A stretch of 32,000 bases of DNA from Pseudoalteromonas translucida KMM 520. Its GTDB lineage: Bacteria > Pseudomonadota > Gammaproteobacteria > Enterobacterales > Alteromonadaceae. Of this stretch, positions 18,213 through 18,552 are shown in pieces; position 1 is the first letter of the stretch; every line of letters starts with the position of its first letter. The notes under the pieces are model-generated. The model was given only the letters and a program-made list of their open reading frames with translations. It had not been told where the DNA came from and did no database searches. Location of the stretch: NCBI RefSeq assembly GCF_001465295.1, contig NZ_CP011035.1, positions 330,001-362,000 of the forward strand, read 5' to 3'. The position numbers were made by a program, and so were the translations under genes.

Positions 18213-18449
18213 TTTATAGCGCCTACGGTTAAAGTTAAGAGCGGAATGTGCTTAAATCTCGTTTCTCGCAGGTCTTATAGATAGTCTTGGTCGGCAATCC
18301 CTGAGTATGCGTTTTGAAATCGAGGTGCTCTGTTGGCTCGAACGTCTTGTTAAAAACATTGGATGTTTGGCATTCAATATTCGTAACCAACAGAAGCATA
18401 TTCCACTTAATATAATAGTCAGTTACTTTTAAATTAAGTGGCTTGGTCG
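18213..18449 (-). ncRNA. Candidate bridge/seek guide RNA in the non-coding left end of the type A IS110 element
   Basis: A 237-nt ORF-free leader lies upstream of the transposase. It has nested stem-loops: 18329-18336/18387-18394 with an inner 18354-18359/18363-18368, and a 9-bp stem at 18403-18411/18433-18441. Internal short matches to the element ends and flank are listed in the findings. No transcript evidence is available. Confidence 0.4.
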
Positions 18450-18452
18450 AAC

Positions 18453-18552
18453 TATAAGGGTTTTCAAGTCGGACAAATCACAGTTGGCTTTTTTGTTCGT
18501 GCCTCACTTATTTTAGCCAACTGCAATTTTCCGCTTAAAACAGCGTTATAAC
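18453..18552 (+). other. attC site remainder (5' arm, loop, 3' arm and R' box) downstream of the type A IS
   Basis: AAGGGTTTTCAAGTCGGACAAATCACAGTTGGC pairs with GCCAACTGCAATTTTCCGCTTAAAACAGCG. The R' box is G|TTATAAC (18545-18552). It belongs to the same sequence family as the attC at 14047-14147. Confidence 0.75.

Follow-up and report, generated by a model that had tools for sequence, protein, structure and literature searches.

A candidate bridge RNA of an IS110-type element inserted in an integron attC site of Pseudoalteromonas translucida KMM 520

In IS621, an insertion sequence (IS) of the IS110 family, the bridge RNA is encoded in the non-coding region (NCR) of the left end, upstream of a DEDD/Ser recombinase (PMC11208160; PMC11208158), and consists of a 5' hairpin followed by two internal loops, the first of which binds target DNA and the second donor DNA (PMC11208160). 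In each loop, the 3' side complements the top strand across the core and right half, and the handshake guides, i.e., the bases 3' of the right target guide (RTG) and the right donor guide (RDG), pair after top-strand exchange with non-cognate DNA (positions 6-7 left of the core); such pairing with cognate DNA is inhibitory in IS621 (PMC11208158). The same placement, order of domains and complementarity, along with candidate handshake bases, are recognizable, here from sequence, in an IS110-type element that we call IS-A, located in a 32,000-nt stretch of the Pseudoalteromonas translucida KMM 520 genome (contig NZ_CP011035.1, positions 330,001 to 362,000; hereafter the window). The two elements differ in recombinase length (326 amino acids in IS621 versus 419 in IS-A, with detectable similarity in the C-terminal domain only, E ~1e-5), in the core (CT versus TT) and in the target, which is linear for IS621 and a structured attC site for IS-A. 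Moreover, the left-hand guides of IS-A stop before the core, the match of its left donor guide (LDG) is offset by 4 nt, and the inner hairpin of its donor loop is tiny.

ISEc21, also of the IS110 type, resembles IS-A in having its NCR upstream of the transposase gene (tnp), a bottom-strand match 5' of the top-strand match in its seekRNA, and natural redirection through changes in the bottom-strand guide, whereas its site is linear and lies inside IS3-family transposase genes and its transposase has 358 amino acids (PMC11187229). The order in IS-A agrees with that of IS110-type seekRNAs, in which the match to the bottom strand comes before the one to the top strand, and the subgroup with transposases of 395-455 amino acids, a range that includes the 419 of IS-A, contains IS110 itself (PMC11187229). 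Group IIC-attC introns home, as IS-A does, to the 5' part of attC in antisense orientation to the cassettes (PMC3001079), but by the unrelated mechanism of a retrohoming ribozyme. ISPpu10 and ISPpu9 of the IS110 family likewise use repeated hairpin-forming intergenic DNA as a target, REP instead of attC repeats, and a structural requirement has been reported for ISPpu10. The IS1111-attC elements (ISKpn4, ISPst6, ISPa21 and ISPa25), reportedly treated by Tetu and Holmes in 2008 and by Post and Hall in 2009, share with IS-A an RNA-guided DEDD transposase and insertion at one end of attC, close to its 5' end and in antisense orientation to the cassettes. Unlike IS-A, they belong to another subfamily with subterminal inverted repeats, a reversed guide order, and an NCR and seekRNA downstream of tnp, as determined for ISKpn4 and ISPst6 (PMC11187229). 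The use of one target by IS-A and this group looks convergent. No description of an IS110-type lineage targeting attC was found in the literature searched; a survey of Shewanella found IS110-family elements in integron variable regions, with none reported in attC (PMC9229058).

Our analysis indicates, with a rough probability of 0.85, that the left-end NCR of IS-A encodes a canonical IS110-type bridge (seek) RNA whose programmed target is the boundary between the R'' and L'' segments of attC. The boundaries of the element, a conserved fold of the sense strand and covariation between guides and DNA were all observed. A first-pass annotation of the window, made without database searches, had proposed that this NCR encodes a bridge or seek RNA, and the proposal is borne out by guide-target covariation, guide-donor covariation and covarying stems across relatives. 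The mechanism is the one described in 2024 and is not new; IS-A is an ordinary but instructive representative, with an apparently convergent target.

Recombinase, boundaries and attC target

The recombinase matches the two IS110-family transposase domains of Pfam (PF01548, 3e-24; PF02371, 7e-15) and scores 146.7 bits, above the cutoff of 140, with NCBIfam NF033542 ('IS110 family RNA-guided transposase'). The ISCro4 transposase (PDB 9t56; 9e-7) can be aligned with its C-terminal domain, SG motif included, and the second PDB match, over the same region, is the IS621 transposase (PDB 8wt6; 8e-6); for both of these recombinases, structures of bridge-RNA complexes have been solved. The residues GID16 (D16), E67, D108/D111 and S323-G were assigned by motif, and the protein has the DEDD domain, Tnp domain and catalytic Ser of IS110-family bridge RNA systems. 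By exact look-up it is ALS34848.1 (PTRA_b0353) of P. translucida KMM 520, which carries the annotation 'hypothetical protein' or 'IS110 family transposase'; proteins nearly identical to it elsewhere bear the name 'IS110 family RNA-guided transposase'.

Scanning of a genome collection produced 69 related loci (numbered with the prefix L) from 98% down to 44% amino acid identity, in Pseudoalteromonas, Colwellia, Psychromonas, Thalassotalea, Cognaticolwellia and several metagenome-assembled genomes (MAGs). In the orientation of the IS, nearly all full-length copies share a left junction of the form ...C-TT-ATAGT.. and a right junction of the form ..CCACCTCAGGGCGTG-TT-GTTA followed by unrelated sequence, and GGGCGTG-TT-GTTA is common to about 30 relatives. 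The left end of IS-A begins with ATAGTTCGACCAAG (given also as ATAGTTCGACC), its right end closes with CCACCTCAGGGCGTG, and the occupied site in the window reads GTCCGACTTGAAAACCC-TT-ATAGTTCG. Two empty sites with the identical arm were found, GTCCGACTTGAAAACCC-TT-GTTATACG (L016:1495) and GTCCGACTTGAAAACCC-TT-GTTAGGC (L057:887). Because these empty sites carry the window's own arm, the crossover is placed at TT and the IS at 16924-18455; collapsed repeat contigs of 1546-1550 bp fit the resulting length of 1532 bp. The first-pass annotation had put the core at GTT (18450-18452) and the left-end terminus at 18449, closing with CTTGGTCG. The empty sites move the core to TT, 6 nt further out, and the IS end to 18455, so that CTTGGTCG, which is indeed present at both 18286-18293 and 18442-18449, becomes left-end positions 7-14 and the NCR measures 243 nt instead of 237 nt.

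This NCR lies upstream of tnp, compared with 29 nt of non-coding DNA downstream, and no subterminal inverted repeats of the IS1111 type were found between the left and right ends. IS-A thus shows the marks of the IS110 type, namely a long upstream NCR, a lack of subterminal inverted repeats and a bottom-strand guide that lies 5' of its top-strand counterpart, and not the IS1111-type organisation. Inside the right end, an imperfect 23-nt inverted repeat (16932-16954 / 16968-16990, 74% complementary) spans the tnp stop codon and could be a terminator or a structural element of the right end.

IS-A is inserted where the R'' box, which ends in TAAC, meets the L'' arm of an attC site, antisense to the cassettes, whose open reading frames (ORFs) stop at TAAC on the plus strand. 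What is left of the site (18458-18553) forms an imperfect palindrome with the layout of attC; its arms pair, leaving some bases bulged, and R', for which the attC consensus is GTTRRRY, reads GTTATAAC. The view of the first-pass annotation that an integron attC is the natural target holds: every insertion has attC-type flanks with matching empty attC sites, and all are placed and oriented in the same way with respect to the attC hairpin. Related genomes contain about 40 empty sites of matching layout, and in the flanking DNA of relatives the unoccupied form is CCAACTGT..GTCC-[arm]-C-TT-GTTA[G/T]RY, with TTTAACAGC as an example of another arm. The cassette cluster of the window (~13.3-19.8 kb) is flanked by an aldehyde dehydrogenase gene and a fatty-acid hydroxylase gene. 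No integron integrase gene (intI) was found within the 32-kb window, and the cluster is therefore regarded as an integrase-less attC cluster.

A conserved sense-strand fold with two putative guide loops

The first-pass annotation had described the NCR as folding into stem-loops, and a folding energy of -58 kcal/mol (z = -3.7) was obtained for 18213-18460 on the minus strand, a stability that none of 200 shuffled sequences attained. The NCRs of 27 non-identical relatives were aligned, and the RNAalifold consensus comprises a 5' hairpin, a long stem with an internal loop and an inner hairpin, and a second domain closed by three short stems. After dropping pairs that RNAalifold drew inside the loops, 35 base pairs were counted, with 97.5% of cells paired; 16 of these pairs have changed on both sides (4.5 +/- 1.4 in shuffles, 0/500 of which reach 16, and 1-6 in slid controls). 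In the donor domain, all three pairs of helix 4 are compensatory and helices 5 and 6 are invariant. About 35 cells are G-U, and C-G or U-A alternates with U-G at four positions (in 9, 7, 7 and 5 sequences). On the opposite strand the G-U cells would turn into A-C mismatches, which assigns the fold to the sense transcript. Thus, the 243-nt NCR holds a conserved structured non-coding RNA candidate beside the recombinase gene, within the 150-250 nt expected of an IS110-family bridge RNA. One locus, L030 (Woeseiaceae MAG), was left out of the tests; upstream of ~1121, its left-end terminus (~20 nt) seems to have been lost or rearranged and the left flank does not resemble attC, while its right junction is normal, and it is probably a decayed copy.

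Evidence of guide function comes from the left target guide (LTG) on the 5' side of loop 1, which would base-pair with the target's bottom strand. It is the most variable part of the NCR and follows each copy's own left flank, which it matches at 6.7/9 positions on average; when flanks were permuted among the 27 unique pairs, the mean was 5.25 +/- 0.22, and 0/20,000 permutations reached the observed value. The covariation between guide and target that the first-pass annotation had suggested looking for among aligned homologues is therefore seen. Identity is 10/10 in L025 and L036 and 8/9 in many copies. Two relatives from Acidobacteriota, L039 and L046 (44-48% amino acid identity to IS-A), served as independent checks of guide covariation, and on quite different arms their identity is still 8/8 (left flank GTTGAATGAG versus loop 1 CUUGAAUGA) and 9/10 (GTCGAACCGA versus GUCGAACCGU), respectively. 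Judged from their sequences, these two loci are natural reprogrammings of the LTG.

On the 3' side of loop 1, UAAC-AA is near-invariant in relatives, as is GTTA in both occupied and empty sites. A compensatory change was found in L034 (Pseudomonadales MAG), where loop 1 reads UAAC-CA and the right junction GTG-TG-GTTA. In the same locus the loop-2 core guide is AA and the left-junction core TT, a single case that fits each loop pairing with the core of the other DNA after top-strand exchange. Of the GACG that follows the core guide, three of the four bases would pair with the donor, while the first G would pair with the conserved C of the cognate target and not with the donor; in L039, CC stands here opposite donor GG. 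Loop 1 therefore has a 5' side identical to the top strand of the left target, a complementary 3' side and covariation, as a target-binding loop does, but with an LTG that does not cover the core.

For loop 2, the donor junction in IS sense is ..CTCAGGGCGTG-TT-ATAGTTCG.., against [arm]C-TT-GTTA.. for the target. CUCAGGG (18299-18305) within the LDG equals CTCAGGG(CGTG) of the right end, and in distant relatives it becomes CUCAGAUG alongside the right end (CAGAUG/CAGATG in L039 and L046). In these two loci, the RNA (CCUCAGAUG) and the right end (CCTCAGATG) share the same two changes relative to the CUCAGGG/CTCAGGG of the window's clade. CUAUAA on the 3' side is the reverse complement of TT-ATAG, i.e., the core and the start of the left end, and is invariant in 26/27 relatives. 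Moreover, the donor-loop G would pair with the attC base just left of the core (position -1): target and RNA bases are C/G in most copies, A/U in L037, G/C in L039 and A/G, a mismatch, in L046. Loop 2 thus has the composition of a donor-binding loop, with support below that of loop 1 because of the few independent changes and the offset of the LDG from the core.

Several of these segments had been noticed in the first-pass annotation and assigned differently. Its match between CTTATAG (18274-18280) and CTATAAG (18452-18458) is genuine, but does not straddle the core where it was placed; the segment is the RDG with the core guide and a putative handshake G. Similarly, CGTCTTGTT is present at 18343-18351, and its partner AACAACACG, which consists of attC R'' (AAC), the core (AA) and the last 4 nt of the right end, lies at 16919-16927 and not at 16922-16930, which reads AACACGCCC. 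The 8/9 match of CGTCTTGTT with CGTGTTGTT arises from the ACG of target-loop UAAC-AA-GACG pairing with right-end CGT. With regard to the proposed pairing of one identical and one complementary guide segment, CUAUAAG and AACAAGACG are real, being the RDG and RTG of two loops, whereas CGACCAAG is not the identical partner; the true 5'-side guides, UUGAAUGCC (18369-18377) and CUCAGGG (18299-18305), had been missed. The annotated motifs seem to span integrated junctions because handshake-type bases follow each 3' guide.

In the mechanism that we propose, the candidate RNA would consist of the 5' hairpin and two internal-loop domains, loop 1 for the target and loop 2 for the donor. Together with this RNA, the 419-amino acid DEDD/Ser recombinase would recombine the junction of a circular IS (..GGGCGTG-TT-ATAGTT.., more fully ..CCTCAGGGCGTG-TT-ATAGTTCGACC..) with attC, giving insertion at the R''/L'' boundary antisense to the cassettes, and the bases 3' of the right-hand guides would pair with the other DNA after top-strand exchange. 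Transcription of the RNA and its binding by the recombinase, circularisation of the IS and top-strand exchange are expected by analogy with IS621, ISEc21 and ISKpn4. The predicted circle junction GCGTG-TT-ATAGT would create TGtTATAGT, an extended -10 element, and a junction-activated promoter is plausible because the two bases before TTATAGT are never TG in the integrated left flanks examined. A promoter and terminator scan of the integrated left end gave a single weak promoter match overlapping the ATG and no terminator. Coordinates of all features are listed in Table 1.

Table 1. Features of IS-A, its candidate RNA, the attC sites and neighbouring elements (window coordinates)
Feature	Position	Strand	Description and basis
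Intact IS110-type element IS-A	16924-18455	minus	1532 bp; occupied versus empty attC sites
Left core copy	18456-18457	minus	TT in IS sense, AA on the plus strand; occupied versus empty sites
Right core copy	16922-16923	minus	TT; junctions of relatives and empty sites
Left-end NCR with candidate bridge RNA	18213-18455	minus	243 nt; structured part ~18258-18441
Recombinase gene	16953-18212	minus	419 amino acids; DEDD RuvC-like and Tnp domains; Pfam, NCBIfam, motifs
Right-end terminus (left donor)	16924-16946	minus	GTCGTCCACCTCAGGGCGTG; kept in relatives from 98% to 63% amino acid identity
5' stem-loop SL1	18403-18441	minus	Helix 1, 3/5 pairs with two-sided changes; inverted repeat I3
Target-binding-loop domain (predicted)	18327-18397	minus	Outer stem, internal loop, inner hairpin 18353-18368; helices 2 and 3, 10 compensatory pairs
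LTG (putative)	18369-18377	minus	UUGAAUGCC; loop 1, 5' side; identity to attC arm left of core
RTG and core guide (putative)	18347-18352	minus	UAAC-AA; loop 1, 3' side; reverse complement of TT-GTTA (core and attC R'' box)
Handshake-type extension of RTG (putative)	18343-18346	minus	GACG; ACG complementary to CGT before the final G of the right end (..CGTG)
Donor-binding-loop domain (predicted)	18258-18324	minus	Closing stems 18308-18324 and 18258-18270, internal loop, short inner hairpin
LDG (putative)	18295-18305	minus	CUCAGGGAUUG; loop 2, 5' side; agrees with the final 11 nt of the right end at 9/11 positions
Variable inner hairpin of loop 2	18284-18297	minus	Sequence and length vary freely among relatives; GC-rich hairpin in L039
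RDG, core guide and handshake bases (putative)	18273-18280	minus	CUAU, AA and GA; loop 2, 3' side; CUAU-AA at 18275-18280
Rest of targeted attC	18458-18553	plus	L'' GGGTTTTCAAGTCGGA, central CAGTTGGCT...AGCCAACTG, L' arm, R' GTTATAAC
Unoccupied attC of the same cluster	14050-14146	plus	TAAC-AA-GGCATTTAA (IS sense TTAAATGCC-TT-GTTA)
IS-B, diverged second IS110-type element	15168-15239 and 16440-16918	minus	In the preceding attC; right end and 3' 154 tnp codons remain
IS3-family element	15240-16439	plus	Inside IS-B; orfA 15310-15576, orfB 15570-16424 with rve domains
Right-end-only remnant 1	19091-19175		TAAC-AA and 42 nt of IS-A right end (98% identical), fused to attC 3' half
Right-end-only remnant 2	19642-19753		TAAC-AA and ~101 nt from the right end of IS-B and the 3' end of its tnp, joined to GTTAGCT

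Contrary observations and alternative explanations

Several observations weigh against a canonical bridge RNA. The LTG of IS-A matches its own site at only 5/9 positions, and that of L013 at 4/9; such poorly matched occupied sites therefore call for mismatch tolerance or an added structural cue. The exact LDG match lies 4 nt from the core with two mismatches between (2 nt from the core in L039 and L046), and both left-hand guides end just before the core and are followed by inner-stem bases, whereas those of IS621 cover the core. In addition, the RTG, the RDG and most of the LDG do not vary, which leaves position and a few changes at the level of lineages (L034, L037, L039 and L046) as the basis for their pairing, and the base immediately following the loop-1 core guide pairs with the C of the cognate target. 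Finally, Rfam 15 yielded no relevant family, either for the whole window at gathering scores or for 16850-18560 at E <= 10.

The alternative that best survives holds that the protein chooses targets mainly by reading the folded or cruciform attC and its R'' box, with the RNA fine-tuning the choice; we consider this rather unlikely, though it can coexist with a bridge RNA. The fixed position and orientation of every insertion relative to the attC hairpin would follow naturally from it, as would the low LTG scores of IS-A and L013, and the IS110-family element ISPpu10 is reported to need a stem-loop in the target DNA besides complementarity to its bridge RNA (bioRxiv 10.64898/2026.03.19.712850). 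However, the LTG tracks the arm across lineages, a relationship that would not persist were the sequence of the arm irrelevant.

A much weaker alternative is the single-loop model of the first-pass annotation, with a GTT core, a left end starting from CGACCAAG and a guide pair formed by CGACCAAG and CUAUAAG, which we regard as very improbable. The two strings do exist, 5 nt apart, and the repeat is exact in the window and in L001-L003; the crossover at TT, the poor conservation of CGACCAAG and its location in a variable hairpin contradict the model. The empty site expected with this core and left end, CTTATAGTTA, gave few matches, all of them non-attC, which was the first sign of a wrong model, and it was dropped on the basis of the same-arm empty attC sites. 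The direct repeat of CGACCAAG/CTTGGTCG was also rejected as a guide: it falls in the inner hairpin of loop 2 and is 8/8 only in the Pseudoalteromonas clade of the window and L001-L003, while Colwellia and Psychromonas relatives with the same left end have the internal segment NACCACG, with 4-6 nt in common, and distant relatives essentially nothing. Its permutation p of ~0.02 is confounded by phylogeny.

The chance frequency of such motifs was estimated with 2,000 dinucleotide-preserving shuffles of the NCR interior and a 35-nt left-junction window. An exact left-junction match of at least 8 nt occurred in 17% of shuffles and one of at least 7 nt in 53%; the right-junction 9-mer with at most one mismatch occurred in 36%, and in combination with a left match of at least 8 nt in 6%. 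The three motifs, each matched in 17-53% of shuffled controls, thus carry little weight as stand-alone evidence. Because the first-pass annotation had itself named similar frequencies in shuffled controls as grounds for abandoning its proposal, its motifs alone would not stand, given these frequencies.

The chance level of these matches and the lack of an Rfam family would equally suit an NCR that is only a structured 5' leader or a set of recombinase-binding DNA sites, with matches due to chance or AT-richness. This possibility is also very slight, as the loop sequences change together with flanking and terminal DNA, the G-U pairs make the fold specific to one strand, and the architecture is that of bridge RNAs proven by experiment. 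Membership of the known IS1111-attC group (ISPa21, ISPst6, ISKpn4), which shares the target class and the geometry near the attC 5' end, antisense to the cassettes (PMC3001079; PMC11187229), can practically be dismissed, given that IS-A has its NCR upstream (243 nt versus 29 nt downstream), no subterminal inverted repeats, the IS110-type guide order, and a recombinase of 419 amino acids against 330-350 in IS1111 and 395-455 in the IS110 subgroup.

Neighbouring elements and wider implications

Taken as a bridge RNA system, IS-A widens RNA-guided attC targeting from the IS1111 type, for which it has been experimentally shown, to an IS110 type with a full two-loop bridge RNA, in a clade that ranges from marine Gammaproteobacteria (Pseudoalteromonas, Colwellia, Psychromonas and Thalassotalea) to Acidobacteriota MAGs. 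Three kinds of mobile elements, namely IS1111-attC elements, group IIC-attC introns and this IS110 lineage, would then converge on the same end and orientation of attC. The relatives offer a natural reprogramming series in which one guide reads the conserved R'' box and the other is retuned to the variable arm; this series could be of use in designing guides and framing off-target rules for bridge recombinases, and may help to explain IS spread and deletions inside cassette arrays.

The preceding attC of the cluster contains the remains of a second element, IS-B, whose right end is split from its remaining tnp by the IS3-family element. IS-B is cut at 16918, exactly where the right core of IS-A begins (IS sense ..GGGCGTG-TT-GTTCCTCAAC), which suggests an adjacent deletion mediated by IS-A, or insertion into a pseudo-target (TT-GTTC) followed by deletion. 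Rebuilding of the pseudo-target inside IS-B from an intact relative was not possible, the closest fetched locus being only 76% identical at the nucleotide level. The unoccupied attC at 14050-14146 fits the guides of IS-A better than the occupied one, with 8/9 positions for the LTG (5/9 at the occupied site) and a perfect RTG.

Both right-end-only remnants lie directly after cassette stop codons, and the deletions behind them could stem from integrase, from homologous recombination or from half-site events of the recombinase. The ParE toxin ORF of a Phd/ParE cassette (18908-19093, plus strand) has 61 amino acids and covers positions 1-53 of the 89 of the Pfam profile. Since this ORF ends at a right-end remnant, the toxin appears truncated, with the antitoxin intact.

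The right end of IS-A, GTCC-ACCTCAGGGCGTG-TT-GTTA (GTCC-N13-TT-GTTA), is laid out like a natural attC arm (GTCC-N12-TT-GTTA), and it also resembles the 5' end of Vibrio cholerae repeats. Possibly it mimics an attC arm or is derived from attC. A more speculative idea, to which we assign a low likelihood, is that the lineage combines structure-gated recognition of attC with bridge-RNA-guided half-site recombination and acts as an integrase-independent remodeller of cassette arrays; if so, half-site recombination would delete and re-join array segments, leaving hybrid attC sites. At the edge of the cluster, GTTAGCT occurs three times in tandem (13358-13380, plus strand), just upstream of the first cassette ORF (13393-14040).

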